64,000 bases of DNA from the NCBI GenBank assembly GCA_031253655.1, contig JAIRVY010000148.1, forward strand, positions 2,121 through 66,120. Reading direction: 5' to 3'. Each line of letters opens with the position of its first letter. The stretch's first letter is position 1. This document shows, one piece after another, positions 394 to 60,104 of this stretch. This DNA comes from Bacteroidales bacterium. Its GTDB lineage: Bacteria > Bacteroidota > Bacteroidia > Bacteroidales > WCHB1-69. The translations under genes and the position numbers were made by a program. Below the pieces are notes generated by a model. The model made no database searches. It worked only from the letters and a program-made list of their open reading frames with translations, and was not told where the DNA came from.

Positions 394-1428
394 TTATTGT
401 TTTACGATTTTAGCGTTTCCAATAATTATCCCTTCCGAAAAAACATTAACAATATAACTGCCGTTTTCCAAATGACTTATATTGATTGATGTATTACCTA
501 TAGCATTATGTGCTATGAGTTTTCTGCCATACATATCGTACAGTTTTACTGTAATTTGTAGCGAATCTTTATATTCAATAAATAAAGTATCATTGACAGG
601 ATTAGGATGAATTTTCAGTAGGGGATTATCTATTGGGGTTATTCCTGCACCATCAGAATAGGTGAATATCATATAACCACTCAACCATCTATATTCTAAA
701 TTGGTTTCCACTTTAAAGAAAGTACTATCCACGGTATTGTCCCTGCTTTTCAGAATGCCGCCAGAATAACTTATGTCACTATTTTCAAAAGTTGGATTGT
801 TTAACGAAATAGCACATGAATATTCCCCTATTTCGTTTTTATACAGCGTAAGGGGTACATTCTGATGACTTCCACCAAAATTTCCTATATTATTTATACC
901 TGTCAAGTCTAGTTCCGTTAAACTATTGAAATAAAGATATATGTTTTCAAGTCGCGTACAATTTGTTACTACCAGTTTTTTAAAATATGGGTTGTGTGTA
1001 CAACTAATAAATTTCATTTGTTTACAATTTGCTAAATCTAATTCAGTAGTGTTACTTTCATCAAATCCAATGCTTTCCAAGGTTTCTAACTCCGCAAGTG
1101 AAACAATTCCAGTGAGTCCTTTTTTACTCAAACTCAAGCTTGTAATCTTCTTGGGGGTTTCTTCTGTCCATTCGACAAATCCTCTCGACTCTCCCGTTTC
1201 GGGATTATAAAACATTGTCCATGATTCAGGGTTGTCAAAAGTTGCATTCAAACCATTGTTTTTAATTAAGTTATTAATTACTTGCACATCGTAAGGGTCG
1301 TAGATTTGAGCCTTTGTTGTGTTTACCATTACGCCTATAAAAGCGAAAACTAAAATTATTCTGCACATTACCGTGACTTTTTGCTGGCACTTACCATTCT
1401 CAAAAAGATTTAATTTTATTTGTTTCAT
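394..1428 (-). CDS. Leucine-rich-repeat protein with T9SS C-terminal sorting domain
   Basis: Signal peptide; LRR-like L..L.L..C..L repeats; C-terminal IHPNPVNDTLFIEY...YDMYGRKL...NGSYIVNVFSEG...KIVKQ, typical of type A T9SS tails. Confidence 0.75.
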   Translation of the reverse strand: MKQIKLNLFENGKCQQKVTVMCRIILVFAFIGVMVNTTKAQIYDPYDVQVINNLIKNNGLNATFDNPESWTMFYNPETGESRGFVEWTEETPKKITSLSLSKKGLTGIVSLAELETLESIGFDESNTTELDLANCKQMKFISCTHNPYFKKLVVTNCTRLENIYLYFNSLTELDLTGINNIGNFGGSHQNVPLTLYKNEIGEYSCAISLNNPTFENSDISYSGGILKSRDNTVDSTFFKVETNLEYRWLSGYMIFTYSDGAGITPIDNPLLKIHPNPVNDTLFIEYKDSLQITVKLYDMYGRKLIAHNAIGNTSINISHLENGSYIVNVFSEGIIIGNAKIVKQ

Positions 1429-15858: not shown

Positions 15859-17199
15859 TTAAAACTTAAACTGCATCCTGCATGTGAAAACACCTTCTTC
15901 TACATGTCTTTGATAATTGGCAACATGAATTTTTCCGGAAGATGGTTTTTCAGGAACGGGAATAGCATTTTTTGTAGAATTGAAAGGCAACTCGTAAAAA
16001 CAGAGTAAATGTAAGTAAGATGTAAATTTCACAAGAAATCCTGCGCCAAAGTAGTGATAAGGTAAATCTACCATGTTTGTGATGTTACTACCATTTAGTT
16101 GTGTATTTGGATTCAAAAAAGCATATTTTAATACGAAAGTAAGAGGCGTTTTGTATATATCCTGTACAAAATAAGTGTGTAAGCCCCAAAATTTACGAAG
16201 ATAATTAAATGGTGTATCTCCAAATTGCATAAATCCGGATTTAGGCGAACTAAAGTCATTTTCTGTAGAGGGTTGTGTTCCAAACAATACCTCACTGCGC
16301 AAGTTTGTAATTCCCCATGAAGTTTGAACTGAGAAGTTCGCGTCTAAACCATAGTATTGTCGAATATTTTTTTGAAAATTGGGAACATTTTCTCCAACCC
16401 ATTTTTTTTCCTGTGAGGCAACTCGTTTAACTTCATAAATCACAGAATCAGTGTTTCTTACTGTTCCATAATACATAGAAGCACCTATACCAAAAGTATA
16501 GTTTTTCCATTTTTTATTGTATTTCAACTGCCCAATAAAGTCCATTTTTCCGTTGTCGGGTAATGTAATTCCGTTTCCGCAGAAGGTGCCGGCTTCCAAT
16601 TTAAGTCCGTCCGGTTTTGAGCCTTTTGGCGAGGCAAGCGTTATCATAGCACCTAGATCTCTTTCATCAGGGAACAGTTTTTGGAATAAAACAGTTCTCT
16701 CGGGACTTTCCCTGCGGGAGGAGGAGTAGGAAATTTCGTCTCCAAAAGGCCGGTTAAAGATGCCTACAGTTAATGATGCCACCTTAAATCTTGACTCAGC
16801 TACTTTGAAATAGAGGTCTTTAATTATGATTCCTTTTTCGGTTAGGTCTAACTGAAAAGTTGCATTATACCAGTTTTCTTCATAAGAAATCTTGATGCGT
16901 CCTCGTCTAATACCAAAACGAAAAAAATCTCCTGATTTCCCATCTCTATCTTTATGATACGACGTTGATTTTCCTACTTTTGTTGTTGTAAACTCCTGCC
17001 CTACTTCAAATTGTCCTTGAATGTAGCCGGAAATCTTTAACTTTTGAAGTTTCTTAATTTGGATAAGGTTCTTATCTACGTCTTCTTTTATTTGGGATAA
17101 TTCTACCCTTAAAGAAATTGTGTCGGTTTGGGCAGAAAGAGGTTGAAAGCAGAAGAGCAGAAAAGCAGAAAGGCAAAAAGGCAAAAACTTAAAGTTCAT
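15859..17199 (-). CDS. Outer-membrane beta-barrel porin (porin O/P-like)
   Basis: Signal peptide, N-terminal coiled-coil segment, alternating beta-strand pattern, C-terminal ...RMQFKF. Confidence 0.5.
   Translation of the reverse strand: MNFKFLPFCLSAFLLFCFQPLSAQTDTISLRVELSQIKEDVDKNLIQIKKLQKLKISGYIQGQFEVGQEFTTTKVGKSTSYHKDRDGKSGDFFRFGIRRGRIKISYEENWYNATFQLDLTEKGIIIKDLYFKVAESRFKVASLTVGIFNRPFGDEISYSSSRRESPERTVLFQKLFPDERDLGAMITLASPKGSKPDGLKLEAGTFCGNGITLPDNGKMDFIGQLKYNKKWKNYTFGIGASMYYGTVRNTDSVIYEVKRVASQEKKWVGENVPNFQKNIRQYYGLDANFSVQTSWGITNLRSEVLFGTQPSTENDFSSPKSGFMQFGDTPFNYLRKFWGLHTYFVQDIYKTPLTFVLKYAFLNPNTQLNGSNITNMVDLPYHYFGAGFLVKFTSYLHLLCFYELPFNSTKNAIPVPEKPSSGKIHVANYQRHVEEGVFTCRMQFKF
17132..17188. 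repeat. Imperfect octamer tandem array GCAGAAAN, encoding the porin signal peptide on the - strand
   Basis: Five consecutive 8-mers at 17149-17188 (gcagaaga gcagaaaa gcagaaag gcaaaaag gcaaaaac), plus gcagaaag at 17132-17139. Confidence 0.8.
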
Positions 17200-31061: not shown

Positions 31062-34000
31062 ATGAAAAACACAAAACCAACTCTTTTTTTTGTTTTCTTA
31101 TTTTTTTTGTTTTCTGCCTTATATGCAATTCCTGCAATCCCTTATCCTGTTACTTTTACCCAACCGGACGGGAAGGAGTTGACAGTGATGCTTAGAGGTG
31201 ATGAGCGCATTCACTGGCACGAATCCCTGGATGGATACACTCTATTGTATAACAAAGTAGCGTTTCTTACTTATGCTTATTTGGACGATGAGGGTAATTT
31301 GCAACCCTCAGAATTTATTGCCACTGACATTGAGAACAGAGATATTGTTGTTAATTCTTTCTTAAATACAATTGATAGGAATTTGTTTTACAGTGATTTA
31401 CAAAAAGATGTGATGAAAAAAGTATGGGAAATCGAGGATGATTATGAAACAAGAAGCAATAGGGCATTAGAAGGGCAATACAAAACCTTATGTGCTTTTG
31501 TGCAATTTCCTGAAAAAGCAATGATAAAAACCATTTCACAGTTTGAAGGATTGATGAATCAATTGGGCTATACAGGGAATGGCACCGGTAGTGTTCGTGA
31601 TTTCTTTAAAGAATCCTCTTATAATAAATTTGATTTAATAATCACCTTATGTGGCATCTATACTGCACCGCAAAGCGAAAGTTATTATGCTGGAAATGAC
31701 GGCGTTCAAAATTGTCAGGTACTTGCAAGATGGACGGCTCTACAAGTTGCGGCTGAGCCTGATATAAATTTTGCAGATTACGACAGCAATAACGATGGAA
31801 AAGTGGATGGTTTTCATTTCATTTTTGCCGGTAAAGGGCAGGAGGCCGGCGGAGGAGCCGGAACAATCTGGTCGCATAAATGGCAGTTCTCTCCTGCCGT
31901 TATTAAAAATGGAAAATCTATCAGCATTTATTCCTGTTCGCCCGAACTCTACTCAAATATAATTACTACAATTGGCGTTATTGTTCATGAAATGACCCAC
32001 GCTTTTGGCGCACCCGACTTTTATGATACAAATTATGGCACCGGTGGTCAATATGATGGAACAGGTAATTGGGATGTTATGGCAAGTGGAAGTTGGAACG
32101 GATACCCGGGTGGAAACAGACCAGTCCATCACAACATGTACACAAAAATACAGTTTGGCTGGGTAACCTCCACACTTCTAAATTTTCCTATTACCATTTT
32201 TGATATGCCAAACTCGGCAGAAAACCCTGTGGCATATAGAATAAATACAGGCAACGGCAATGAACACTATTTACTGGAAAATAGACAAAAAATTAAGTTT
32301 GACACCGATTTACCCGGAAGTGGTTTACTTATTTATCACGTTCATACCAACGTAGGAACTTCCGGTATTAATGACACACATCCCCAAAGGATGTACCCTG
32401 TTTGCGCCAGTTCAGCAGTAGCTATTCCTGTAGCAGGAACAAGCAATTATGGAAATATAAACAGTGCCGGTTGCACTTTTCCGGGAACCAGTGGAAAAAC
32501 AGCATTTAACGGCACTTCAACTCCACGAATGTTTCATTGGACTAATACCGTTATAAGTGATAAACCTATCACGGATATTACCCAAAATACTTCTGCAAAA
32601 ACCATTTCATTCAATTTTATGGGTGGAGGCATAATAACACCAGTTATTGATATTACGGGCGTACCCACTTCGGCTTTAGTAGGCTTACCGCTTACCCTTA
32701 CCGGTACAGTGATTCCAAACGATGCAACTTTTAAAACCATTCTATGGAGCGTAATTAACGCAGGAACAACCGGGGCAACTATTTCCGGAAACACGCTCAA
32801 TAATACGGGAACTGGAACAGTTAGTATTAAAGCAACTATAGAAAATGGGGCTGCCTTTGGAACAAGTTTTACAAAAAACTTTGATATTTTGGTAACTAAA
32901 TCATCTCAAACTCCTCCATCTGCACCTACATTACTTCACACAACTCCTACATCCATTACGTTGAATAATATTCCCGGATGCGAATATAGAAGAGATAGTG
33001 GGGATTGGCAAACTTCTACAGCATTTGAAGGACTTACTATTAACACAACCTACAACTTTCAGGCACGCAAGTATGAAACACCTACTCATTTTGCCTCAGA
33101 TCCGAGTCCCGAATCTCAATTTACTACTGCATTGATTCCGGTTACTCATATCACAGATATCCCTTCCATTGCTTATGTTAAAGTCCCGTTTACACTTAAC
33201 GGCACAATCCTTCCAAGTAATGCCTCTTACCAAGCTATTATCTGGAGTATTTATGAAGACTATAATACCAATACAACAATAACTGATGATGTTTTCTTCG
33301 CTAATGCTACCGGATTTGTTACCATTGAAGCTACTATTATAGATGGTATTGAGTTAGGAATTAATTACTCGCAACAGTTTGAAGTTACTGTTATCAAATC
33401 AACTCCTATACCACCTCCCGCTCCTATCCTTTTTAGCAAAACAAAAACAAGTATTACACTTAACGAAGTGACTGGATGCGAGTTTAGAATGGACGATGGG
33501 AATTGGCAAATTTCAAACTTTTTTGAAGGACTAGAAATTAATACGACTTACAGTTTTCAGACAAAAAAAATTGAAACAGAAACTCACATCGCTTCAGAAC
33601 CAAGTGCAAAAGCATTTTTTACTACAGACTCTATTAAAAAATTCAGTATTACGGCATCCGTAAACAATGCTTTATTCGGTACGATAACGCCCAATGGAAT
33701 AATTACTGTTGATGAAGAAGAAACACTTTCTTTCAATATTGCTCCTTTAGATAAATATAAAATTTCTAATGTGTTGGTAAATAACGAAAATAAAGGCGAA
33801 TTAACTACCTACACATTTGAAAATATTCAATCCAATGGAACAATCCATGTCATTTTTACGGAAAAGGTGGGTATTAGAAATAATGAACTTTCTAACATCA
33901 ATGTTTTCAGCCACCAAAATCGTATATTTATCAAAAATGAATCAAATGTGCCCATCAAATCGGTTGAAATTATTGACATGATGGGACGTTTGATATATCA

Positions 34001-34124
34001 AAATGAAATAAATAGTATTGAAACCGTCATTCCTCTTTATGTAGAGACAGGTGTTTATCATGTGATTTTGTATAACAAAGATTTAACCCCTTACAGTATT
34101 TTTAAATTATTGATAACTAAATAG
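31062..34124 (+). CDS. M6-family (immune inhibitor A-like) metalloprotease with Ig/Fn3-like modules and T9SS C-terminal domain
   Basis: HEMTHAFGAPDFYD zinc motif; conserved N-terminal M6 domain; two ~165-aa internal modules; T9SS-tail-like C-terminus. Confidence 0.8.
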   Translation: MKNTKPTLFFVFLFFLFSALYAIPAIPYPVTFTQPDGKELTVMLRGDERIHWHESLDGYTLLYNKVAFLTYAYLDDEGNLQPSEFIATDIENRDIVVNSFLNTIDRNLFYSDLQKDVMKKVWEIEDDYETRSNRALEGQYKTLCAFVQFPEKAMIKTISQFEGLMNQLGYTGNGTGSVRDFFKESSYNKFDLIITLCGIYTAPQSESYYAGNDGVQNCQVLARWTALQVAAEPDINFADYDSNNDGKVDGFHFIFAGKGQEAGGGAGTIWSHKWQFSPAVIKNGKSISIYSCSPELYSNIITTIGVIVHEMTHAFGAPDFYDTNYGTGGQYDGTGNWDVMASGSWNGYPGGNRPVHHNMYTKIQFGWVTSTLLNFPITIFDMPNSAENPVAYRINTGNGNEHYLLENRQKIKFDTDLPGSGLLIYHVHTNVGTSGINDTHPQRMYPVCASSAVAIPVAGTSNYGNINSAGCTFPGTSGKTAFNGTSTPRMFHWTNTVISDKPITDITQNTSAKTISFNFMGGGIITPVIDITGVPTSALVGLPLTLTGTVIPNDATFKTILWSVINAGTTGATISGNTLNNTGTGTVSIKATIENGAAFGTSFTKNFDILVTKSSQTPPSAPTLLHTTPTSITLNNIPGCEYRRDSGDWQTSTAFEGLTINTTYNFQARKYETPTHFASDPSPESQFTTALIPVTHITDIPSIAYVKVPFTLNGTILPSNASYQAIIWSIYEDYNTNTTITDDVFFANATGFVTIEATIIDGIELGINYSQQFEVTVIKSTPIPPPAPILFSKTKTSITLNEVTGCEFRMDDGNWQISNFFEGLEINTTYSFQTKKIETETHIASEPSAKAFFTTDSIKKFSITASVNNALFGTITPNGIITVDEEETLSFNIAPLDKYKISNVLVNNENKGELTTYTFENIQSNGTIHVIFTEKVGIRNNELSNINVFSHQNRIFIKNESNVPIKSVEIIDMMGRLIYQNEINSIETVIPLYVETGVYHVILYNKDLTPYSIFKLLITK

Positions 34125-34239
34125 TTCGTTTTTTACTCAAATAAATCAGTAGTATTTTCCGTCCAACGATGAAAAAAAATTGCATTTCAGTAATAATTAT
34201 ATAATATCAAAGTTTTTATTTTAGCCCTAATATTTTTTT

Positions 34240-36801
34240 ATGAAAAACACAAAATCAACCCTTTTTTTTGTTTTAACATTTTTTTTCTTTTCAGCCTTAT
34301 ATGCAATTCCTGCAATACCTTATCCGATTACTGTTACCCAACCGGACGGGAAGGAGTTGACCGTGATGCTTAAAGGTGATGAGCGCATTCACTGGCACGA
34401 GTCAATGGATGGCTACACCCTGTTGTATAACAAAGAGGCATTTCTTACTTATGCTTATTTAGACGATGCGGGCAATTTGCAACCCTCAGAATTTATTGCC
34501 ACAGCTATTGAAAATCGAAATATTTTCGTTAATTCATTTCTAAACACTATTGATAAAAATTTGTTTTACAGTGAAATACAAACACAATTGATGAAAAAAA
34601 TATGGGAGATCGAAGACAATTTTGCAGGAGGAGACGAGAGGGCATTATCCGGACAATATAAAACCTTGTGTGCTTTTGTGCAATTTCCTGATAAAGAAAT
34701 GAAAAAAACCATTTCACAGTTTGAAGGATTGATGAATCAACTTGGCTATACAGGAAACGGCACGGGTAGTGTTCGAGATTTCTTTAGAGAATCCTCATAT
34801 GGAAAATTTGATTTAATCATCACGTTATGTGGAATTTACACCGCACCGAAAACTGAAACTTATTATGCAGGTGATCCCGGTGATGGTACCGCAAACTGTC
34901 CTGAACTTGCAAGATGGCTTGCTCTACAAGTTGCTGCAGAACCGGATATCAATTTTGCTGATTATGATTCTAATAACAACGGTAAAGTGGATGGATTTCA
35001 CTTCATTTTTGCAGGGGTAGGGCAAGAGACCGGAACGTGCAACTCTTGTATTTGGTCGCATATGTCTATTGTCTATCCAGCAGTTACTAAAAACGGAAAA
35101 AAAATCGATACATATTCCTGTTCGCCTGAATTATATTCCGGTTCTACAATTACAACAGTTGGTGTTATAGCTCATGAGATGTCGCATGCTTTCGGTGCGC
35201 CCGACTTTTACGATACTAACTACCAAGTCGGCGGACAATATACCGGAACAGGAAAATGGGATTTGATGGCAGATGGCAGTTGGAATGGATCTCCGGGGGG
35301 GAATTGTCCCGCGCATCACAATATGTACACCAAAGTTCAGTTTGGTTGGGTTACTCCTTATATTTTAACTGCGCCTACAACAATCCCACAAATGCCCTAT
35401 TCGACTGAAAGCCCTGCGGCATTTAGAATTAATACAGGCAACGGCAATGAACACTATTTGCTGGAGAATCGTCAAAAAATTAAGTTTGATTACAGTGTGC
35501 CCGGAAACGGACTGATTATTTACCATGTGCATAACAGTGTGGGTTCTTACGGTATAAATAACACCCACCCACAAAAGATGTATCCCGTGTGTGCCAGCTC
35601 AGTTACACCTATTCCGGGAACTGGCGCTGCCTCAGTTCAGTATGGAAATATTAACTCCGCAGGATGCCCCTTTCCCGGAACAAGCGGCAATTCATCCTTT
35701 GACGAAAATTCAACACCAAGAATGTTCCACTGGACGAACACTGTAATTACCGGAAAACCCATTACGAATATTACCAACGATGCTTCTACCAGATTCGTTT
35801 CATTCGATTTTATGGAGGAAAGCGATAATCTGTTTTTTATTACCACAAAACCAAATGCATCAGATCGCGGAACAACAACAGGCACAGGATGGTACACCGA
35901 CAACAGTTCAATTACCGTAAGTGCCACACCTAAAGCCGATTATAAATTTTCAAACTGGACGGAGTCCGGAAATATCGTTTCTGAAGCTCCAAACTATACT
36001 TTCACTATCTTTGAAAGCGCCAAATTAGTTGCTAATTTTACAAGCAGTAATGCTCAATTATCGGATTTATGGGTTTCAACAGGTAATTTAGTCCCTGCCT
36101 TTAATACAAATACAACCAATTATACGGTTACTGTTTCCAAATCCGTAACCTTTATTACTATCTCGTGTACCACAGCAGATCAGTTCGCTACCGTTGAAGG
36201 AGCCGGTGTAAAAACGTTAGAAATTGGTAATAATATCTTTACAATTACTGTTACCGCAGACGACAAAATTACCACGAAGCAATATACGGTGAATGTAATT
36301 AGAGAGAATGAGAATAAATATACAATCACTTCAAGTGTTGAGGACAATGTTGGCGGTACTATTACCCCGAATGGTGAAACAATTGTATCGGAAGGCGCAA
36401 ATCTCACTTTCACTATTACCCCATTTGATAAATATAAAATTTTCAATGTGTTGGTTAATAACGAAAATAAAGGAGATATAGAAACTTATACCTTCGAAAA
36501 TATCAAATCAGATGGAACTATCCATGCAATTTTTATTGAAGATGTAGGTGTAGATGGGAGTATCCCATGTAACATCCTTGTTTACAGTAATCAAAATTGT
36601 GTGTATATTAAAAATAAATCTAATATTACGCTTAATTCCGTAGAAATTACAGATATGATGGGGCGTATTGTTTACAAAAAAGAAATATCTAATGAAGTAA
36701 CAAATATTCCATTATGTGTAGTAACAGGTATTTATCACGTAAAGTTATTTTGCAATGATTTAACCATCCCAAATATATATAAAATATTGATAATCAGATA
36801 A
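34240..36801 (+). CDS. M6-family metalloprotease paralog with a different middle region and T9SS C-terminal domain
   Basis: HEMSHAFGAPDFYD. The N-terminal ~530 aa closely parallel 31062..34124. The middle holds an InlB-B-repeat-like module and a cadherin-like module (LSDLWVSTGNLVPAFNTNTTNYTVTV). T9SS tail. Confidence 0.8.
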   Translation: MKNTKSTLFFVLTFFFFSALYAIPAIPYPITVTQPDGKELTVMLKGDERIHWHESMDGYTLLYNKEAFLTYAYLDDAGNLQPSEFIATAIENRNIFVNSFLNTIDKNLFYSEIQTQLMKKIWEIEDNFAGGDERALSGQYKTLCAFVQFPDKEMKKTISQFEGLMNQLGYTGNGTGSVRDFFRESSYGKFDLIITLCGIYTAPKTETYYAGDPGDGTANCPELARWLALQVAAEPDINFADYDSNNNGKVDGFHFIFAGVGQETGTCNSCIWSHMSIVYPAVTKNGKKIDTYSCSPELYSGSTITTVGVIAHEMSHAFGAPDFYDTNYQVGGQYTGTGKWDLMADGSWNGSPGGNCPAHHNMYTKVQFGWVTPYILTAPTTIPQMPYSTESPAAFRINTGNGNEHYLLENRQKIKFDYSVPGNGLIIYHVHNSVGSYGINNTHPQKMYPVCASSVTPIPGTGAASVQYGNINSAGCPFPGTSGNSSFDENSTPRMFHWTNTVITGKPITNITNDASTRFVSFDFMEESDNLFFITTKPNASDRGTTTGTGWYTDNSSITVSATPKADYKFSNWTESGNIVSEAPNYTFTIFESAKLVANFTSSNAQLSDLWVSTGNLVPAFNTNTTNYTVTVSKSVTFITISCTTADQFATVEGAGVKTLEIGNNIFTITVTADDKITTKQYTVNVIRENENKYTITSSVEDNVGGTITPNGETIVSEGANLTFTITPFDKYKIFNVLVNNENKGDIETYTFENIKSDGTIHAIFIEDVGVDGSIPCNILVYSNQNCVYIKNKSNITLNSVEITDMMGRIVYKKEISNEVTNIPLCVVTGIYHVKLFCNDLTIPNIYKILIIR

Positions 36802-36859
36802 CATTGAGTAATTCACACTTAAACGACTATTAATTTTATAAAATTATGAACTGTTTACC

Positions 36860-39160
36860 ATGAGAAAAAAACTCCCTTCTCCTTTATACTTTCTCCTTTT
36901 TGCTTTCTTCTTTCTCCCCTTTTCCTCTTTCTCGCAAACCTACAATGAAGACGACAAAGAGGGCTTGCGTATCTTTCTGCGACAACCCTCCGTAATTGCG
37001 GGCGATATTAATGCACAAAGATTAGGACTGCAAATAAGCGATACAATAAATTGGATGATGGATGAATTGTGGGTAGCTAAAGTTACTGCACTTACTTGGA
37101 ACAGTGATATACCTAAACGATTGATAGAAATATACGGTAATAATATGGGATGGGATTACAAAGGGCTTGCAGGCTACTTAGATTGTAGTTTGTGGACTTA
37201 TTTGACAAGGATGCGTTGCACTGCGAATAATTTGACAACCCTGATAGCTAACAACAACACCGCATTAACACATTTGTACTTCCGATTTAACAAGCTTACA
37301 TGCATTAATGTAAGCAATTGCCCTGCCTTGGAAGTATTGTGGTGTAGTTCCAATCAATTAACAACACTCAATATTTATAACTGCCCGGCTCTAAAGTCTC
37401 TATGGTTTGAAAAAAATTTATTAACAACACTTAATGTTAACAATTGCACAGAATTGAATTGGGTAGATTGTAAAAATAATCAATTTATCATTCTTGATGT
37501 TGGCAATATTCCGGCTTTATCGCATTTAGAATGTAGTAGTAATTTTTTATCTTCCATAAACCTTAATGCAAGTTCTGCCTTATCCTACTTGGAAATCAAC
37601 AATAACCTTTTAACAACCATTGATATTAGCAATAATAGTTTATTATCAGAGTTACATATTAATAACAATCAAATTACGCATCTTGCCCCACATTCCGAAT
37701 CTTTAGCACATTTGGAATGTAGAAACAACAATCTTGTTTCTCTTGATGTAAATAACAGCCCAAACTTACTGCATTTAGATTGCAGAAACAACAACCTAAA
37801 CTCTATTGAATTAAGTAATAATAGTAAGTTACAGCAACTCTATTGCGAAAACAACGAACTAACCTCCCTTGATATAAGTAATAGTAAAAACCTGCAAGAA
37901 CTGTATTGTGATAATAACGAATTAACCGCGCTTAATGTAAGCAATGCTACAAAATTAGAAGAGTTACTATGTAAAAACAACCAACTCACCACGCTCGATG
38001 TAACCGATTGTCATGCCTTAACCCATTTAGATTGCAGAAACAACAGTTTAGCTTCTATTTCCAACATTCATAATAAAAACAACTTAAAAAAACTGATTTG
38101 CGACAACAATCAATTAACTACCCTTGATGTGAGCAACTGCACTAAATTGGAAGAGTTGTCGTGCGTAAACAACCAATTAACCTCTCTTGATGTAGCAAAA
38201 TGTAAATCTATTGTTCATATCGATTGTAGAGATAATCGGTTAAACTCCTTGGATATCAGTAGCGTTGGAGGAACTTATCTGTTGCACGCCTTGTGGTGTA
38301 GTTATAATCAAATGTTTTTTTCGGGCATTCCTCCCACCATCCCTTATCCGTGGGAGTATGTGTATTGGCCCCAAAATACCATAGAGGGCGGCAAAATTGA
38401 TTATGATACCGGCATTGATCTCAGTAAAGAATACTTGGTGGAAGGCAATTATACCCACTTCTCGTGGTTTGATATTACCAACGAGGAAGAACAGCCGATA
38501 GAACTACCGAATGACTACGGCTTTTTCTCACTTACAGAAGAACATATTGGAAAACGCCTGCGCTGCAAAATGCACAACGCCACTTTTCCATGGCTAACCG
38601 GCAATAATATTTTGGTGTATGAGGTAACAATAAAACAGTTTTGTGAAGCGGTGAACAATCTTGAGGCGGAGAAACACCCTTATAATTCTATTCTACTTAC
38701 ATGGAGCAAACCCGAAAGCAATTTTACGGTAGCCGGATACAGCGTTTATAGAAATGAACAATTATTAAATAATGAATTATCGTCTATCTGTTCTTCCTTA
38801 GATGAAAATTTACCTGATGGGAATTATGATTACTATGTAGAAACACATTACACAAACGGTTGTATTTCAGAAAAATCGAATATTGTTACCGTAACAGTTG
38901 GGGTTGGAATAGAATCAATTAAGAATTACGAATTACGAATTACGGTGTACCCGAATCCAACTACCGGTCAATTGAAAATTGACAATGGACAATTAACAAT
39001 TGAAAAAGTGGAAATTTACGATATTTACGGTAGAAAAGTTCTTGAACCACCTCTTACGGTCTTACGGTCTTACGATCTTACGGTCTTACACCACGGTATC
39101 TACTTTATAAAAATAACAACAGAAAAAGGAACAATTACCAAAAAAATGATTAAACAATGA
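36860..39160 (+). CDS. Leucine-rich-repeat surface protein with Fn3-like domain and T9SS C-terminal domain
   Basis: About 16 LRR units (NN.LT.LD..N...L..L.C); C-terminal VYPNPTTGQL...YDIYGRKV...GIYFIKI...KKMIKQ. Confidence 0.8.
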   Translation: MRKKLPSPLYFLLFAFFFLPFSSFSQTYNEDDKEGLRIFLRQPSVIAGDINAQRLGLQISDTINWMMDELWVAKVTALTWNSDIPKRLIEIYGNNMGWDYKGLAGYLDCSLWTYLTRMRCTANNLTTLIANNNTALTHLYFRFNKLTCINVSNCPALEVLWCSSNQLTTLNIYNCPALKSLWFEKNLLTTLNVNNCTELNWVDCKNNQFIILDVGNIPALSHLECSSNFLSSINLNASSALSYLEINNNLLTTIDISNNSLLSELHINNNQITHLAPHSESLAHLECRNNNLVSLDVNNSPNLLHLDCRNNNLNSIELSNNSKLQQLYCENNELTSLDISNSKNLQELYCDNNELTALNVSNATKLEELLCKNNQLTTLDVTDCHALTHLDCRNNSLASISNIHNKNNLKKLICDNNQLTTLDVSNCTKLEELSCVNNQLTSLDVAKCKSIVHIDCRDNRLNSLDISSVGGTYLLHALWCSYNQMFFSGIPPTIPYPWEYVYWPQNTIEGGKIDYDTGIDLSKEYLVEGNYTHFSWFDITNEEEQPIELPNDYGFFSLTEEHIGKRLRCKMHNATFPWLTGNNILVYEVTIKQFCEAVNNLEAEKHPYNSILLTWSKPESNFTVAGYSVYRNEQLLNNELSSICSSLDENLPDGNYDYYVETHYTNGCISEKSNIVTVTVGVGIESIKNYELRITVYPNPTTGQLKIDNGQLTIEKVEIYDIYGRKVLEPPLTVLRSYDLTVLHHGIYFIKITTEKGTITKKMIKQ
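36877..36932. repeat. Pyrimidine-rich heptamer-periodic tract (TTCTCCT family) encoding the LRR protein signal peptide
   Basis: ttctcct ttatact ttctcct ttttgct ttcttct ttctccc cttttcc tctttct, read in a 7-nt phase. Confidence 0.7.
38917..38944. repeat. Heptamer tandem array AATTACG x4 (first copy AATTAAG) just upstream of the T9SS tail
   Basis: aattaag aattacg aattacg aattacg, encoding IKNYELRIT directly before VYPNPT. Confidence 0.85.
39052..39091. repeat. Octamer tandem array TCTTACGG x5 inside the T9SS tail
   Basis: tcttacgg tcttacgg tcttacga tcttacgg tcttacac, encoding LTVLRSYDLTVLH. Confidence 0.85.
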
Positions 39161-42100
39161 AAAAACATCTATCCATTTTTATTGCCATTGTATTTTGTAC
39201 CACAACTTTATGGGCGCAAACTTGGGTGGGGCTTACAGACACTGTGCCTGCCGAACCGGAAATCACACTTATTAATTCCACAAACCAACAGGTAAGTTTC
39301 ACAGTGGAGTTGTCGGGTTTTTATGCCACTTCTACTACCGAAAAAGGGATTACCTACCAGCGCCTTTCCATTCCGGGTTGTGGAGTGGCTGGAGAGGTGG
39401 GCACACCCGAAATGCCGATAATAACCCAACGAATTGCCATTCCCAAATGCAGCGGGGTAAACTATTCGGTGCAGATTACCGCTAGCCAAACACTGCAGGG
39501 ATACAGGGTATATCCTGTTCCCGAACATGAAACCGACTCTTCCGGCAGGCTCTCTGAGGTGTTTGCTATAAATGAGTTGGCATATCAAACCAACGCCTTT
39601 ACGCCGGTGGAGAGTTATGCCGTACTGGAAAGCGGCGCGTTGCGCAACCAACATTTTGTACAGTTAGAACTGCATCCCCTGAAATTTAATCCTGTAACGG
39701 GTCAGTTGCAGGTGGCTACCCAAATGAGTATTACTTTATCTTTTGTGAATCCTACCACAAGCGTAAATGTAAATACCGGTATCTTTAACAATGTAGCCAC
39801 GAACACTTTTTTAAACTATCAAGACCAAGGGATTAAAGCCTCTATTAATGACAGGGCTTTTGAAAAAGCAGGATTCACGCATGGGAGTGTTGATTGGATA
39901 AGAATTAATAATCCGTCAGATGTAGAAAACATTGTAGCGGACTATTTAATAATTTGTGCTGATGCATTTTTTCCGGAGGACGCTCCTAACGAAGAAATTT
40001 TACGTATTGCCCACCATAGAGCCACCTATAATGGTTTTGATGTAATGATACTTAATGTGGAGGATATTCTTAATGAAAAAGTTGGTTTTTACTATGAGCC
40101 TCAATCTGCAAATCCCGCAGTAAAGAATGCCCGGCGTATTCGCACGTGCATTCGTATGATTTACGAAGGGCAAAACGCCCAACACACCTACGATGGGCAT
40201 TTGGGCTACGTGCTGCTGGTAGGAGATGTGGATGCGGACAATACAGGAATGCCGAGTTCGAGTGCAACAGAAGGTACTGATTATTACTTTTCCTGTATTA
40301 CAAAAAATGAATATGGGATTTATGATAATGTGGGGGATTTGTATGTTGGTCGCTTTTGTGTGCCCAATAACATTTTGCCCAACGATGGTTTGCAAAAACT
40401 CTACAATATGGTAGAGAAAACCATCTTTTTTGAATCGGAAGCCAGTTTTGGCGGGTGGAGAAATAATGTCTTGTCGGGAAACGGAGACCCACCGCCCTGG
40501 GCTCTTTATTATAATTGGCTGCAAAATGAGTACATGCCATCCATAATTCACACTCAAAATTTGAAGGTTGTAAACTATTATGATGGTTACCAACAACAAC
40601 CGGTAGAAGTTTTCCGGCAAGATGTTTTGGATTTATTTAATTTTGGTGGTTCTTATCTGGGCTTTCACACACACGGCTACCCTGATGCATGGAATATGGG
40701 GCTAACCACAGATTATATATTACCCCGTCTCAATAATACTCATAAAACCCCTTTATGCGTTTCCACTGCCTGTTGGGTGGGCAAAATAGAAGAAGACTGT
40801 TTGGCAGAGCGTCTTACTCATACTTTTCCGGATAAAGGTTTTGTTGCTATGGTGGGCTCTGCTATACTTGTTATACAACCACCTCAAGAATACGGTAAAT
40901 ATTATGACATTGCAGATCTTTTTCCAAATGCCATTTATCAAAACCTATCACACATTGTGGGCGAAGCCTATTTAGAGTCAAAATTAAAGGTTTCCTCAAC
41001 AAATGGTTTTCATATTTTCGGTGACCCTGCCCTCAATATTATGGCTGATGGTTTTGAAGTTACGCACGATATAACAGTAGATTCGCTTACCGATATTTCA
41101 AGCAGAGTGCGGGTGCGCAACGGCGCTACCTTAACCTTTACCGCAAATGCAGTTGTAAATTTTCATACATACGGTCAATTGATTATTGAACATGATGGAG
41201 CACTGCAAATTGAAAACCACGCGCAATTTAACGGAAATTTTGCCGGTAATGAGCCGCTTATCCACATTAAAGGCGGAGAATTTATTGTGGGAGAGGATGT
41301 GGTGTTTCAGGATTTACACGGGGGGATTTTGTTGGAAAATTATAAAGGTAAAGAAGAAAATATTATTTATGATGATAACAAACAGTACTATTTAGAACAT
41401 ATTACCTTTAATAACTCGCCACTTATGCATCAGGGGACGAGACTACATGTTGAAAATTGCACCTTTAATCCCGGAAGTAATGTAAAATCTGATATAGGAA
41501 CTTGTAGAATTTATTATTGTAATTTTATTAATACTGTGATTTTGGCAAATCACTCTTTAGTATCAACAATTTCTGAAAATGTGAACGAAAAGCCTTTAAA
41601 TATAGGACAAATTGTAGTTGGTGGCTCTCAGTTTATCGGAACTAATAATAATACTGCATTAAAACTGATTTCTACCAACGAGCATGAGATACATGGTAAT
41701 ACAATTTCTGGGTATGAAACTGGTATTTCGTTAACCAATAGCGGAAATACCACACATCTAACAAATAATACCTTCGTTGGAAATGACATCTCGAATTGTT
41801 ATACGGGCTTTGAATTATTCAATTCACGTTCAATTATTGCAAGGAATAATATTCATAATAATGTTCACGGAGTAAAACTTTTTAACAACAGTTATACCGT
41901 ATTTGGATGGGGACAAAGTGAGCCGCATATTATTCAAAATTGCGATTCTATAGAACTATATGCTTCCGAAAACTCTTTCCCAACCTATTTTCGGTACAAT
42001 AAAATTTCTGATGTAAACAATCAAGGTTACTCTAAGGATATTCCTCTGTTTTGGTGGGACGTGGACTATCCAAACCCGGATAAAAGAGATGTTACTTATA

Positions 42101-43026
42101 ATTGTTGGGGAAATAATTTCGTACCTCAATATCATCTTTATCCTTCAGTTCTTGAATGGGACCCAGTTTGGGATTGTAGTAGTATATCCGGTTCGCCCAA
42201 ACAAGGCGATGACGAAGACCTTTACTTTGCCGCATTAGATTATTTCGCCAATGATGAATACGCCAACGCCGAAGCCACATTTAAAGAACTCATCCAAACC
42301 TATCCTCATAGCCGCTTTGCTATTGCTGCACTGCACGAACTGTTTGCATTAGAGCACTATACAAACCGCGACTTTTACAGTTTAAACAGTTATTATATTA
42401 CTTTTACACCAACTGACAGTAACTTGTTTAACACGGCAGATTTTTTGGCAACGCGCTGTATGGTAAAAGAGCGCGACTGGCAACCCGCAGTGGACTGGTA
42501 CGAAAATCGCATTGAAAACCCGCCCAGCTACCAAGACAGCGTGTTCGCCGTAATAGATTTGGGAGATATTCACTTAATGATGGAAGCAGACACCCTTTCA
42601 GGCGGTAAATCGGGGCACTACTGTCACTATCGTCTACCGAACATAAAACCCAAAAACAGAACGCACTACGAAGAAAACAAATCTTCTTTGTTGGCAACAC
42701 TGCCGCAAATAAAGAAACCAAAGACCGAAACTCCGCAAACCGACTACCGCTCATCGCACACCGCAAAGGGCGCGTTAGGAGAGTGTGTTCCTAATCCTAC
42801 AAGTGGAGATGCAACTATTTCTTATGAAATTTTTACCGGCGGGGTCGTAGAGATTCAATTTTTCAACAGTATGGGACAATTGGTGAAAAGTTTACCGCAG
42901 GGAAATTTATCAAAAGGAGATTACAGGGCAACAATCTCCGTTGTGGAAATGCCTGTGGGCGTTTATCATTATACTCTTGTGGTAATTGGGGAAAGAGTGG
43001 ATAGTAAAAAGATGGTAGTGAATTAA
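39157..43026 (+). CDS. C25 (gingipain-like) cysteine peptidase with beta-helix repeats, TPR-like segment and T9SS C-terminal domain
   Basis: Gingipain-propeptide-like N-domain, YVLLVGDVD, candidate catalytic GFHTHGYPDAW (His) and VSTACWVG (Cys), parallel beta-helix-like repeats, T9SS tail ECVPNPTSGDATISY...GVYHYTLV. ATGA overlap with the upstream LRR gene. Confidence 0.75.
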   Translation: MKKHLSIFIAIVFCTTTLWAQTWVGLTDTVPAEPEITLINSTNQQVSFTVELSGFYATSTTEKGITYQRLSIPGCGVAGEVGTPEMPIITQRIAIPKCSGVNYSVQITASQTLQGYRVYPVPEHETDSSGRLSEVFAINELAYQTNAFTPVESYAVLESGALRNQHFVQLELHPLKFNPVTGQLQVATQMSITLSFVNPTTSVNVNTGIFNNVATNTFLNYQDQGIKASINDRAFEKAGFTHGSVDWIRINNPSDVENIVADYLIICADAFFPEDAPNEEILRIAHHRATYNGFDVMILNVEDILNEKVGFYYEPQSANPAVKNARRIRTCIRMIYEGQNAQHTYDGHLGYVLLVGDVDADNTGMPSSSATEGTDYYFSCITKNEYGIYDNVGDLYVGRFCVPNNILPNDGLQKLYNMVEKTIFFESEASFGGWRNNVLSGNGDPPPWALYYNWLQNEYMPSIIHTQNLKVVNYYDGYQQQPVEVFRQDVLDLFNFGGSYLGFHTHGYPDAWNMGLTTDYILPRLNNTHKTPLCVSTACWVGKIEEDCLAERLTHTFPDKGFVAMVGSAILVIQPPQEYGKYYDIADLFPNAIYQNLSHIVGEAYLESKLKVSSTNGFHIFGDPALNIMADGFEVTHDITVDSLTDISSRVRVRNGATLTFTANAVVNFHTYGQLIIEHDGALQIENHAQFNGNFAGNEPLIHIKGGEFIVGEDVVFQDLHGGILLENYKGKEENIIYDDNKQYYLEHITFNNSPLMHQGTRLHVENCTFNPGSNVKSDIGTCRIYYCNFINTVILANHSLVSTISENVNEKPLNIGQIVVGGSQFIGTNNNTALKLISTNEHEIHGNTISGYETGISLTNSGNTTHLTNNTFVGNDISNCYTGFELFNSRSIIARNNIHNNVHGVKLFNNSYTVFGWGQSEPHIIQNCDSIELYASENSFPTYFRYNKISDVNNQGYSKDIPLFWWDVDYPNPDKRDVTYNCWGNNFVPQYHLYPSVLEWDPVWDCSSISGSPKQGDDEDLYFAALDYFANDEYANAEATFKELIQTYPHSRFAIAALHELFALEHYTNRDFYSLNSYYITFTPTDSNLFNTADFLATRCMVKERDWQPAVDWYENRIENPPSYQDSVFAVIDLGDIHLMMEADTLSGGKSGHYCHYRLPNIKPKNRTHYEENKSSLLATLPQIKKPKTETPQTDYRSSHTAKGALGECVPNPTSGDATISYEIFTGGVVEIQFFNSMGQLVKSLPQGNLSKGDYRATISVVEMPVGVYHYTLVVIGERVDSKKMVVN

Positions 43027-47303: not shown

Positions 47304-47712
47304 TTTCCTGACTTCGTCAATGCGTAAACCAAAAATTTTCATCAAAAAGGATTTCAATTCGCTTATGGCGTTTCATAATCATTGTTCTTGATAAAATTTG
47401 GTTATTGAGAAGCATCTTAATTTTGATTGTTGTAATGGTTCTTGCCATATTCAAAACTTTATCCACACTCATATTAATGTGGGATGGTATGCTGTATAAA
47501 TCTGTTCAACTGCCAACTCGGTATTTGTTAAATAGCCCTTCAAGCCATCCCATTGCGCGTCTTAATGATCTGTTTATTTTCTTCTTTACAAACATGAAGC
47601 GAAAATAGTAATAAGAGCTTGTGTACCCCAAAACAGTGTACGCAAAAAGTATAATACACAAATTGTTAATTAGTTATAATTCTGGTTTCTATTGAGTGAC
47701 GAAGTCAGGAAA
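47304..47712. repeat. Perfect 16-bp inverted repeat pair flanking 377 bp of non-coding or decayed sequence
   Basis: TTTCCTGACTTCGTCA at 47304-47319 and its exact reverse complement TGACGAAGTCAGGAAA at 47697-47712. Confidence 0.7.
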
Positions 47713-47715
47713 AAT

Positions 47716-48018
47716 CTACTTCTTGACTAAACCCAGTAACAAATCTCTTTTGTTGGGTGAAACTTCAAAAATAACTGATATTTTTTCAGTATTATCAATG
47801 GTAGAAGCATCCACATATTTTTTTGGGTATGTGAATAAATATACAATATCAACATTTAAAGTTTCTGCGATTTTCGCAAGATGGTTTACTTTTAATTGCT
47901 GCTTTCCGTTCTCAATTTTATTCCAATTTGATGCATCACAATTAATAGCAAAGGCTATATTTTCTTGACTTACACCCTTTTCCTTTCTTATTTTTACGAT
48001 GTTATCAATTACATTCAT
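47716..48018 (-). CDS. XRE-family helix-turn-helix regulator (start moved to ATG 48018)
   Basis: MNVIDNIVKIRKEKGVSQENIAFAINCDASNWNKIENGKQQLKVNHLAKIAETLNV is a canonical HTH_3 pattern. Confidence 0.7.
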   Translation of the reverse strand: MNVIDNIVKIRKEKGVSQENIAFAINCDASNWNKIENGKQQLKVNHLAKIAETLNVDIVYLFTYPKKYVDASTIDNTEKISVIFEVSPNKRDLLLGLVKK

Positions 48019-48116
48019 AGTTACAAATTTAATCAATTGATTTATACAAATTTGTGAGTATTTATATAAATTATATGATTTATTGGAATGTTTTATATGA
48101 GTTTTACTCATTTATA

Positions 48117-48124
48117 TATTTTTG
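48117..48124 (+). promoter_or_regulatory. Candidate Bacteroidota -7 promoter box (TAnnTTTG)
   Basis: TATTTTTG, 52 nt upstream of ATG 48177. No clear -33 TTTG seen. Confidence 0.3.
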
Positions 48125-48176
48125 CAGTAAGAAATTTGTATCAATTACAGTTATTCATTTATCAATTCAAATCATT

Positions 48177-48641
48177 ATGAAACAAACTCTTACCCTTTTA
48201 TTATGGCTTTGCCTACCGTTTCTTAGCTTAGCCCAAAATCCACTAACTCGCGTGTACGAGTACGATGCAGCAGGCAATCGTGTTGTGCGAAAATTAATTA
48301 CATTAAAGGTACCCTCTACGCCGGCGGAAGATTCGGTGGAAGTTACAAGTGACGAGTTACTAGTTACGAGTTACATTTATTTTGTTGAAAAACTTGCCCA
48401 ACTTGAAATGAAAATCAACCCCAACCCATCTACTGAAAAGATTACGCTTTCTATTATCAATATGAATAAATTGCAAAGCGGACTACTGCAATTGTACTCT
48501 ATGAATGGACAGTTGCTTCAAACCCAACCCATCCATTCTGCTACAAGTGAAATTTCATTGGTAGGCTTTGTCACAGGCTCATATATCTTAAAAGTACAAA
48601 TAAATGATACCATCGAAAATTGGAAAATTATTAAACAATAA
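48177..48641 (+). CDS. Small secreted protein: YD-repeat fragment plus T9SS C-terminal domain
   Basis: Signal peptide (LSLAQ), YEYDAAGNRVVRK (YD/RHS repeat), heptamer-encoded linker, then KINPNPSTEKITLSI...YSMNGQLL...GSYILKVQ...KIIKQ. Confidence 0.6.
   Translation: MKQTLTLLLWLCLPFLSLAQNPLTRVYEYDAAGNRVVRKLITLKVPSTPAEDSVEVTSDELLVTSYIYFVEKLAQLEMKINPNPSTEKITLSIINMNKLQSGLLQLYSMNGQLLQTQPIHSATSEISLVGFVTGSYILKVQINDTIENWKIIKQ
48341..48375. repeat. Heptamer tandem array AGTTACN x5
   Basis: agttaca agtgacg agttact agttacg agttaca, encoding VTSDELLVTSY between the YD fragment and the T9SS tail. Confidence 0.85.
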
Positions 48642-48674
48642 CAAATAATCTTTACCACAAAGAACACAAACATT

Positions 48675-49481: not shown

Positions 49482-49520
49482 ATACAACAAAGAATATAAC
49501 AACATAATAAAATTAAACAG

Positions 49521-50120: not shown

Positions 50121-50143
50121 GGAAATAACAATCTGAATTATTA

Positions 50144-50171
50144 ATAGCCTGCTTTCGAGTGGGCTATTTTT
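50144..50171 (+). terminator. Intrinsic terminator after the immunity gene
   Basis: ATAGCCTGCT-TTCG-AGTGGGCTAT: 10-bp stem with two G-U pairs and a UUCG tetraloop, followed by TTTTT. Confidence 0.6.
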
Positions 50172-50174
50172 AGT

Positions 50175-50749: not shown

Positions 50750-51673
50750 TTACAAGGCAAAATCATCTAACCGTTTCTTTAGTCCCTCATATTTAAGTTT
50801 ATAGATGGTAGTTTCTTTAAAATAGTGTTCAAAAAAATCGGGGGTTAAGTTTGCTAAAACTTCTTCCTGCTTCCCAACAAACGAAGGGCGTAACAAAATT
50901 GCCTTCTCATTAACGGGGGCATCTGCGTTGTTTGGGCAAACATTTTGACATTCATCGCAGCCAATTAGCCAGCCATATTTAGCTATTTTAGTAAAGTTAG
51001 TTTCATTTTTATTTAAGTTAATATTAGAAATACAAAGATTACTATCCACTTGATATGGGGCAACAATGGCCTTTGTAGGACAAACAGCGATACACTGTCT
51101 GCAACTACCGCAGCTACCGAGATTAGGATTATCATAAATATCAACTTCTGCATTTATTAACAGACACCCCAAATAGACAAAAGAGCCGAATTTTGTCTGA
51201 ATTATACCGTTTTTCCCATAATAGCCTATTCCTGCCTGCACCGCCCACGCTTTTTCCGAAATAACCGAGGAATCTACTGTAATCCTATAATTAACCAATC
51301 CATATTTTTCTTGCAAACTACACGCCAAATCTTCCAACTTTTCTTTCATAAAAATGTGATAGTCTTTAATTTGTGCATATTGCGAAATTTGAGATTTGAA
51401 ATTTGAGATTTGAGATTTGAGTTGTAGAAATTGGGTGTTGTAATTATAACCACAAACAATTACCGATTTACAGTGTGCCAATAACAATTCAGGGTGAAAC
51501 CTTTTATCAATATCTCGTTCCAAAAATTCTTTATTGGCGTGCAAATTTTGAGCTATTGCTTTTTCAAAACGCTCTTTTTCAACAGGTAAAGGTTTTGCTT
51601 TGGTAATGCCACATAAGGCGAAACCTTGTTTTCGAGCTTCTTCTTTAATAAAATCTGAATTAATCCGTATCAT
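50750..51673 (-). CDS. queG: Epoxyqueuosine reductase
   Basis: CGSCRQCIAVCP and CDECQNVCP ferredoxin motifs; cobalamin-domain-like N-terminal half. Carries a heptamer-array insertion. Confidence 0.85.
   Translation of the reverse strand: MIRINSDFIKEEARKQGFALCGITKAKPLPVEKERFEKAIAQNLHANKEFLERDIDKRFHPELLLAHCKSVIVCGYNYNTQFLQLKSQISNFKSQISQYAQIKDYHIFMKEKLEDLACSLQEKYGLVNYRITVDSSVISEKAWAVQAGIGYYGKNGIIQTKFGSFVYLGCLLINAEVDIYDNPNLGSCGSCRQCIAVCPTKAIVAPYQVDSNLCISNINLNKNETNFTKIAKYGWLIGCDECQNVCPNNADAPVNEKAILLRPSFVGKQEEVLANLTPDFFEHYFKETTIYKLKYEGLKKRLDDFAL
51386..51420. repeat. Heptamer tandem array (A/G)ATTTGA x5 inside queG
   Basis: aatttga gatttga aatttga gatttga gatttga on the + strand, encoding KSQISNFKSQIS on the - strand. 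Confidence 0.85.
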
Positions 51674-60004: not shown

Positions 60005-60050
60005 TATTTCAAAGTTTAAAAGTTAATAGATCTAAGATATTAAGGCTTAA

Positions 60051-60104
60051 GGTTTGAAAAGTTTGAACAGTTTGAATAGTTTGAGGAGTTTGAATTGTTT
60101 GTAT
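60051..60104. repeat. Nonamer tandem array (AGTTTGAAN x6, imperfect) in the spacer between the CoA-transferase and Kal-like genes
   Basis: ggtttgaaa agtttgaac agtttgaat agtttgagg agtttgaat tgtttgtat. Confidence 0.85.

Follow-up and report, generated by a model that had tools for sequence, protein, structure and literature searches.

Short tandem repeats at three sites within and next to the type IX secretion tail of a Bacteroidales leucine-rich repeat protein

The DNA analysed here is a stretch of 64,000 nucleotides (the window) from a metagenome-assembled genome (MAG) of a Bacteroidales bacterium (GenBank assembly GCA_031253655.1, contig JAIRVY010000148.1), and our subject is a gene within it that encodes a leucine-rich repeat (LRR) protein ending in a type IX secretion system (T9SS) sorting domain, together with the short tandem repeats found at and inside this domain (Table 1). 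A type A C-terminal domain (CTD) of this kind is the export signal of T9SS cargo and is removed by PorU after export. P0001 ([quoted passage not shown]) matches the LRR protein at 100% identity. Exact-protein look-ups with the LRR protein and with SerS matched no record, and the one protein for which they gave a match was the small T9SS-tail protein, on a Logan contig (see below). Its CTD scores 57.1 bits against TIGR04183 (cut-off 23), residues 696-766 covering profile positions 1-72 of 72, and 48.8 bits against PF18962 (cut-off 27). It has the full-length profile match, the position at the extreme C-terminus and the PNP, GRxV and GxYF motifs of a type A CTD, and what sets it apart from the described domain is its subfamily, in which simple repeats make up the stretches between the motifs. 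With 71 aa for a 72-position profile the tail has its native length, so that the arrays add no residues, and this length equals that of the tail of the protein encoded at 394..1428 on the minus strand, which likewise spans the whole profile, as had been noted from the sequence. An AlphaFold2 model of the last 85 residues is beta-sandwich-like with six long strands (mean predicted local distance difference test score (pLDDT) 72, on a shallow alignment of seven sequences). At the other end of the protein, the N-terminus MRKKLPSPLYFLLFAFFFLPFSSFSQ is signal-peptide-like by the appearance of its translation.

Three arrays of non-triplet units (7, 7 and 8 nt) lie inside the open reading frame (ORF), beginning at 38917, 38969 and 39052, at sites that we call slots A, B and C. 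The arrays in slots A and C had been reported in the original prediction and both hold up, as repeats detected by Tandem Repeats Finder (TRF) and as parts of, or neighbours to, a bona fide T9SS CTD; the slot B array and a fourth one in the signal-peptide codons come in addition to them. The slot A array reads AATTAAG AATTACG AATTACG AATTACG and ends, exactly as claimed, one base before the CTD, the codon for V of VYPNP (residue 696) beginning at 38945. In the AlphaFold2 model it would encode a disordered linker running into strand 1 (model residues 1-9 with pLDDT <50), and the slot B array would cover strand 2, the turn that follows and the first part of strand 3. Slot B holds stop codons in both alternative frames, and frameshifts at slot A terminate there; a perfect CAATTGA array would itself put a TGA in the frame used, and the GGA codon in QLxIDNGQL is an interruption that avoids this stop. 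The slot C array, composed of TCTTACGG TCTTACGG TCTTACGA TCTTACGG TCTTACAC, lies where it had been placed between two conserved strands, and the loop proposed for it roughly agrees with the long coil predicted to join KVL to GIYFIKITT, where the modelled domain has its lowest confidence. Perfect repetition in the tail arrays extends over 21 nt (3 units) and 23 nt (2.9 units) at most. With a period of 7 or 8, at least 3.5 copies and at least 85% identity as the criterion, the window contains five arrays, compared with none in a simulated set of 180 Markov sequences of 64 kb each (orders 1, 3 and 5), and TCTTACNNTCTTAC has 4 matches in it vs 0.24 expected. Within the window, arrays of TCTTACGG and AATTACG are confined to the tail of the LRR gene. 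The array near the 5' end of the gene encodes the hydrophobic core of the putative signal peptide, and the signal peptides of the orthologues are without such an array.

Table 1. Features of the LRR gene, its tail arrays and related elements in the window.
Feature	Position	Strand	Remarks
LRR-repeat T9SS cargo gene	36860..39160	+	766 aa; putative signal peptide, then LRR region, Fn3/Ig-like domain, linker and type A CTD; from ORF list, LRR_4, PF18962 and TIGR04183
Pyrimidine-rich array	36872..36926	+	CTCCTTT x6.6 (74% matches) or 21-nt unit x2.6; from TRF, sequence and translation MRKKLPSPLYFLLFAFFFLPFSSFSQ
Slot A array	38917..38944	+	AATTAAG + AATTACG x3 (IKNYELRIT); linker; TRF period 7, 4.0 copies, 95% matches, score 49
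T9SS type A CTD	38945..39157	+	aa 696-766; from TIGR04183, PF18962 and AlphaFold2
Slot B array	38969..39003	+	CAATTGA x5, 78% matches (QLKIDNGQLTIE); inside the tail; TRF
Slot C array	39052..39091	+	TCTTACGG x4.8 (LTVLRSYDLTVLH); between YGRKV and GIYFIKI; TRF period 8, 93% matches, score 69
C25-family peptidase gene with its own T9SS tail	39157..43026	+	downstream of the LRR gene; its ATG overlaps the TGA of the LRR gene (ATGA)
Degenerate AGTTACG-like array	48341..48375	+	x4.9, 81-85% matches; in small YD-repeat/T9SS-tail ORF 48177..48641

Related tails were surveyed over the last 330 nt of each orthologue, by codon and by array scan, and 15 more loci were fetched through the Fn3-like domain of the cargo. 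The homologues P0002-P0005 share 54-73% identity with the LRR protein, and we regard P0003 and P0004 as true orthologues because the same C25-peptidase gene is kept downstream; the order of LRR gene and C25-peptidase gene is found in loci L002 and L005. Every related locus stems from a gut-type metagenome of JGI or ENA, and the titles of MAGs made from one of these metagenomes (Th196P3bin138 from Ga0099364) point to termite hindguts. In this CTD subfamily of termite-gut-type Bacteroidales only three blocks of the tail are conserved, VYPNPTTG, VE[VI]FD[IV]YGRK and [DN]ISHLxxGIYF[IV]KI...KK[IV]IKQ, and the segments before and between them are nearly always filled by arrays of 7-8 nt units or by hairpin-type repeats; the units vary by gene, and the frame is kept. 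The linker before VYPNP (slot A) is built of AATTACG in the window, L003 and L004, of AAGGGAG in L002, of AATGCAG in L005 and of G[GA]AGTTA in L008 and L009. Between YPNPTTG and VE[VI]FD (slot B) we find CAATTGA in the window, five perfect copies of TGTCAAT in L002 and L010, AATTACG in L015 (four perfect copies) and also in L016, AGTGGACG in L005 and AAAGTTC in L009, and between GRxV and ISHL/GIYF (slot C) there is TCTTACGG in the window, L002, L009 and L141, AGCAGAAR in L009, ATGTCCCCA in L004 and CAATTGT in L143. The slot C DNA of L002 is nearly identical to that of the window, the same five units are present in L009 and L141, and the encoded peptide is conserved in P0121-P0124, P0130 and P0137.

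Slot B and C peptides are found at fixed length on unrelated cargo as well (P0121-P0126, P0127-P0153), for example TTGQLTIDNGQLTI and VLEPPLTVLRSYDLTVLHPGIYF. That peptides like YELRIT and LTVLRSY might recur in the T9SS tails of relatives had been anticipated and proved correct: of the 39 homologues, 9 have a peptide of the NYEL type and 10 have one of the LTVLxSY type. A search with the tail alone returned six proteins, a sample too small for statistics. In L003, L005, L009 and L010 the arrays are replaced by hairpin-type elements, and in L005 some 25 extra, hairpin-bearing residues split the tail into profile positions 1-34 and 36-75. These elements, resembling repetitive extragenic palindromes (REP) or miniature inverted-repeat transposable elements (MITE), lie in frame in slots B and C (L003, ~2180-2330; L005, 11850-12000; L009, 2600-2740; and L010), and examples are GCGGGTCAAGCCCGC (peptide GQARND; L003 and L009), TTCCCCTCCAATGAATTGGAGGGG and an element of ~100 nt in L005 (peptide VIPN...SRNEESH).

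Within an array the units change in concert, CAATTGA turning into CAATTGT and QLTIDNGQLTI into QLSIVNCQLSI with the segment still 11 aa long, which is concerted evolution of units at constant array length. Copy number is in fact constant in the in-frame relatives that could be scored, with four AATTACG units in slot A (window, L003, L004), five heptamer units (11 aa) in slot B and five octamer units in slot C (window, L002, L009, L141). Three independent assemblies of P0003 also have identical arrays; they were retrieved by exact protein identity and are a biased sample. The homogenisation might come about by slippage or misaligned repair and be balanced by selection on length. The arrays overwrite native-length segments instead of inserting into them, because both the tail and the array-bearing DUF1730 domain of queG (see below) keep the native length of their profiles.

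The history of the tail is separate from that of the cargo. Compared with L004, the window has ~90% nucleotide identity in the gene body and 50-56% in the tail; compared with L002, it has 55-70% in most of the body, with a maximum of 89% in the Fn3-like region, and reaches 90% over the latter half of the tail (92% at third codon positions). Since tail and cargo identities are uncoupled in both comparisons, tail modules are exchanged between genes by recombination. Fragments of tails broken near slot C were also seen: in L017 (211-324) an orphan C-terminal half stands behind an unrelated Cys-rich ORF, and in L015 (2030-2066) the tail ends after VEVFDI and is followed by tsaD.

The original prediction had further proposed that such arrays are enriched at the tails of T9SS cargo. 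In a sample of 161 kb that was picked by cargo homology and not by repeats, and with the tail defined as the CTD ±45 nt, the tails make up 4.8% of the sequence and contain 14 of the 20 period-7/8 arrays (binomial p ~9e-15, for loci that are homologous and not independent), which amounts to 14 arrays in 7.7 kb of tail vs 6 in 153 kb elsewhere, about half of the latter six being intergenic. The enrichment itself is therefore upheld by the sample, but the units are not specific to tails, and such arrays are present in 2 of the 6 T9SS-tail genes of the window. The result is best read as meaning that this particular tail subfamily is full of arrays. For the small T9SS-tail protein encoded at 48177..48641, a related array at the same junction had been claimed; the array is there and related, if degenerate, but its position differs, as it stops ~40 nt before the CTD (aa 80/81-154). 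The Logan contig L001 (SRR14710925) is 100% identical to window positions 47582-50414, this AGTTACG-like array included, and shows no variation.

Similar units are found far from any tail. In queG (50750..51673, minus strand), which encodes epoxyqueuosine reductase, a cytoplasmic housekeeping enzyme, an ATTTGAG x5.4 array lies in frame at 51384-51421 and encodes LQLKSQISNFKSQISQ; the DUF1730 domain of the protein is not lengthened (aa 58-135 corresponding to profile positions 1-77), and the last unit of the array overlaps what we take to be the conserved IS.YA motif of the family. At 17146-17187 a AAAGCAGA-type 8-nt array (x5.2) occupies signal-peptide codons of the ORF 15859..17199 on the minus strand, and its unit, AGCAGAAR, is the one that also fills slot C in L009 (119-148). 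Further arrays lie in short intergenic spacers right after stop or before start codons (window 60049-60101, L002 383-419, L005 5861-5892, L143 224-260), with the units GTTTGAA[N]A, AGTTCAAA, TAATGAT (between two genes with the ETF domain PF01012) and TAAAYYY. Arrays of CGTAATT and CAATTGA are intergenic in places, too.

The octamer of slot C was scanned for as TTACGRTCTTACGRTCTTAC with one genome per species. At least 118 loci have arrays of NNTCTTAC; they belong to Chitinophagaceae, Sphingobacteriales and Saprospiraceae, to Bacteroidales MAGs from termite guts and to some members of other phyla, so that the idea of a tail-specific octamer is refuted by a scan in which it is mostly an intergenic repeat across Bacteroidota. 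Among the matches listed, there are dozens of loci in the isolate Danxiaibacter flavus and 5-7 in each of several termite-gut MAGs, the arrays have 2.5-23 units, a PNP motif precedes none of 168, and the open frames that contain most of them are too short for genes. In the reading direction of the gene before it, the octamer is (GTAAGANN)n, and its arrays start at stop codons. This was seen behind 50 distinct genes among the matches listed (enolase-, ThyA-, FtsX/LolE-, GuaA- and FtsK-like genes among them; loci L023-L140), the stop being TAA in 33 of the 50; examples are L067 2547-2616 (minus strand), L054 5153-5259 and L106 5789-5970 (minus strand). The last one to three sense codons (...RP or ...RQ before the stop) are often already part of the array, and the 8-nt period brings a TAA into all three frames within 24 nt. 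The octamers embedded in tails have the orientation opposite to that of the post-stop arrays. Our literature searches found no description of such octamer arrays at stop codons.

What a change in copy number would do to the LRR protein was computed for each tail array. The gain or loss of one unit in any of them gives, in silico, a product of 702-761 aa without the terminal GIYFIKI...KKMIKQ, in agreement with the earlier expectation that the final strands would be lost. Among the 39 homologues the tail is in frame in 37, as scored by a motif screen and checked by eye and with precomputed PF18962 hits, and the remaining two, L141 and L142, are out of frame inside slot A. In L141 (P0146) the junction reads ...GAATC AATTACG AATTACG AATTACG GTGTATCCGAATCC, and the alignment shows three AATTACG units between conserved flanks vs four in L003, L004 and the window; frame 1 encodes the cargo, and frame 3 contains a complete tail with no stop before the one that follows its final KKIIKQ. 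In L142 (P0149) slot A measures 49 nt vs 42 nt in L002, with the cargo in frame 1 and an intact tail in frame 2. To judge from these sequences, the length change at slot A is recent enough in both that the tails are undecayed. L141 and L142 both stem from one assembly, ERZ27257342, and represent different genes or lineages, not an on/off pair of one strain. The proposed variation in copy number was thus recovered in part: L141 is one unit short and slot A of L142 is 7 nt longer than that of L002, but an allele pair of one strain or population differing in copy number was not found among the relatives compared, and the in-frame relatives are constant. Similarly, of the proposal that slippage switches secretion off, the part that stands is the disconnection of the tail at slot A in L141 and L142; the arrays are, however, short and interrupted, and none of the 39 homologues has an out-of-frame allele at slot B or C.

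Other candidates for such off-alleles were rejected. L009 carries a 1-nt indel in a run of G upstream of the arrays, L015 has lost the second half of its tail by a deletion and continues with tsaD, and the frame break in L143 and L144 is away from any array and was seen in two samples. The latter two loci (L143, 273-1578) contain a small T9SS-tail gene (P0125) directly 5' of rplV-rpsC-rplP, which overlaps the ORF of a 276-aa secreted protein in another frame. Programmed ribosomal frameshifting as a means of reading the tail of L141 was discarded, there being no slippery X XXY YYZ heptamer at the junction. When 1.84 billion representatives were searched with the P0146 tail that is out of frame, only P0154 and an unrelated repeat protein came up, and no further clean off-alleles; P0154 is a chimeric ORF in which a LolE/FtsX-like frame runs into an out-of-frame tail fragment.

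We consider it on balance probable, if modestly so, that the arrays are lineage-typical simple-sequence repeats residing where a recombining subfamily of T9SS tails tolerates them, in three segments that are cleaved off with the tail, and that they constitute a frameshift hot spot, above all in slot A. The three segments between the blocks would accept almost any array or hairpin-type repeat as long as the total length holds the frame, a tolerance that fits the removal of the tail after export, and the arrays travel with the tail module as recombination swaps it between genes. A change in length at slot A throws the whole tail out of frame, as in L141 and L142, and the tail-less product, keeping its putative signal peptide and losing the T9SS export signal, should remain in the periplasm. 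The repeats would thus be present through the tolerance of the segments and the spread of the tail family and not through selected switching, and the off state would be the effect of a mutational hot spot, perhaps exploited and perhaps not. Several points weigh against this account. Simple neutrality fails to explain why the density of arrays in tails is so far above that of the rest, which shared ancestry of the tails could. A small vocabulary of units is common to slots, genes and even families, where random local slippage predicts otherwise. For two out-of-frame alleles to be recent and undecayed in a sample this small, slippage would have to be frequent or selection weak, and this fits real phase variation as well. 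Finally, the source genome is represented by 64 kb, and the claim that the repeats are genome-wide rests on relatives.

Alternatively, the tail could be a contingency locus acting on a secretion signal, in which slippage at the junction array, and possibly at the other two, reversibly disconnects the cargo from its tail; we see this as a possibility of rather less weight. Surface display of the LRR protein might then, equally tentatively, toggle in a subpopulation with transcription and the cargo frame untouched. The non-triplet units inside the ORF, one step of which removes the tail, are what such a locus calls for, and so are the exact minus-one-unit allele with an undecayed CTD in L141 and the 7-nt difference at slot A next to an intact CTD in L142. 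The strong enrichment of arrays at the tails of the subfamily and the homogenisation within arrays, which implies slippage-type events over evolutionary time, point the same way, and LRR/Fn3-type surface proteins belong to a class that is often phase-varied. Against it, no in-frame relative deviates in copy number, slots B and C have yielded no out-of-frame allele and both slot A alleles come from the same assembly. A same-strain pair of on and off alleles was not found, and the three P0003 assemblies, chosen with the bias mentioned, are identical. Moreover, similar arrays lie in queG, in signal peptides and in intergenic DNA, where switching would be senseless, and many orthologues hold non-repeat or hairpin sequence in the slots.

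The likeness to the simple-sequence-repeat contingency loci of Haemophilus influenzae and Neisseria, such as the heptamers of hmw1A and hmw2A, consists of non-triplet units within an ORF, shifts of frame, a surface protein as the product and natural out-of-frame alleles. Unlike there, the repeats sit at the 3' end, and their slippage would remove the export signal only, the protein still being made. The arrays described here have 3-5 interrupted units, only three of them perfect, as compared to 13-38 units in published phase-variable heptamers of H. influenzae (PMC2651432), and are too short and too impure for the hypermutability of such loci. Lin and Kussell found simple repeats enriched at both ends of genes for biophysical reasons, and tied phase variation to the N-terminal enrichment, frameshifts at the C-terminus being only weakly selected (PMC3315296). 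In the case of T9SS cargo such a frameshift is no mild event, since it strikes the tail, on which export depends.

A broader idea is that an active, sequence-selective process in Bacteroidota spreads a few 7-8 nt units, with the octamers at stop codons as one product, the T9SS tails as a coding niche and the junction array as a reversible export switch; this we regard as unlikely. Still more doubtful is a role at the level of the nucleic acid, in which a protein or an RNA regulator would bind the units, or recombination would use them as hot spots for the swapping of tails, their coding being incidental. The same few units do recur across slots, genes and intergenic DNA, and the intergenic octamers are fixed in position and orientation, starting at stop codons. 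The tail phylogeny is uncoupled from that of the cargo with break points near slots A and B, and half-tails broken near slot C exist (L015, L017). However, the unit at a given slot is not conserved among orthologues, which argues against a specific binding site, the tail octamers run opposite to the post-stop arrays, and conserved motif DNA such as GTGTACCCGAATCC could equally serve recombination. An RNA element or RNA structure was rejected, as a search of window positions 36500-40000 gave no match to any Rfam family and the tail RNA has no exceptional fold (z = +1.57). Chance similarity or an assembly artefact, for which the shortness of the arrays and the origin of the window in a MAG might be cited and positive support was not found, is almost certainly not the explanation, given the empty simulations, the identity of the independent Logan contig over the region it covers, the same arrays in independent JGI and ENA assemblies, and array lengths of 28-40 nt, far below the assembly k-mer in the ENA record names (k141).

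Among other known systems, the repeats described as long simple-sequence repeats (LSSR) or short tandemly repeated repetitive sequences (STRR), the cyanobacterial STRR being heptamer-type repeats, are similar in their 7-8 nt units; among the relatives scanned, as there, one unit recurs at many loci within a genome and across distant lineages, mostly in intergenic DNA and with variable copy number. The arrays of the tails differ in lying in frame at three fixed sites of one domain with a locked length, and their units AATTACG, CAATTGA and TCTTACGG are not those described. In the part of the work of Mrazek et al. (2007) that is summarised in a later paper, heptamers are given as the commonest class of 5-11 nt repeats in prokaryotes (PMC4679880), and a TAACTGA family recurs in Beggiatoaceae, Cyanobacteria and Bacteroidetes without known function (PMC4679880). 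Our literature searches found no description of repeats in T9SS tails or of phase variation through them. A further comparison is offered by the palindromic elements of Rickettsia, which Ogata and co-workers are said to have reported in 2000 as inserted in frame in protein-coding genes. They share with the tails the occurrence of repetitive DNA at permissive sites of ORFs, and the slots of orthologues do hold hairpins (GCGGGTCAAGCCCGC in L003 and L009, the ~100 nt element in L005), whereas the window has direct tandem arrays and no palindromes in these places, and its domain is not lengthened relative to the profile.

The LRR gene is part of a run of four consecutive T9SS cargo genes on the same strand (31062-43026), comprising two paralogous M6 metalloproteases, the LRR protein and the C25 (gingipain-family) peptidase. 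Further downstream, the small ORF that joins a YD-repeat fragment (YEYDAAGNR) to a T9SS tail is followed by an SpvB/AHH-nuclease ORF and an Imm11-like immunity ORF (48177-50120), an arrangement that looks like an orphan Rhs-type toxin/immunity module.

If switching through the junction array were true, it would be a phase variation of the secretion signal and not of expression, for which we found no description in a T9SS. The analysis also led to a previously undescribed and sharply positioned family of repeats at the stop codons of Bacteroidota. More generally, the tails show that bacterial genes can harbour simple repeats and hairpin elements in frame at places whose peptide is shed once export is over. 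Even without switching, the tail subfamily may be viewed as a natural mutagenesis experiment, with dozens of tails in which three motif blocks are kept and almost any repeat peptide stands between them, and it makes testable which parts of the type A signal are required for recognition and for cleavage by PorU.

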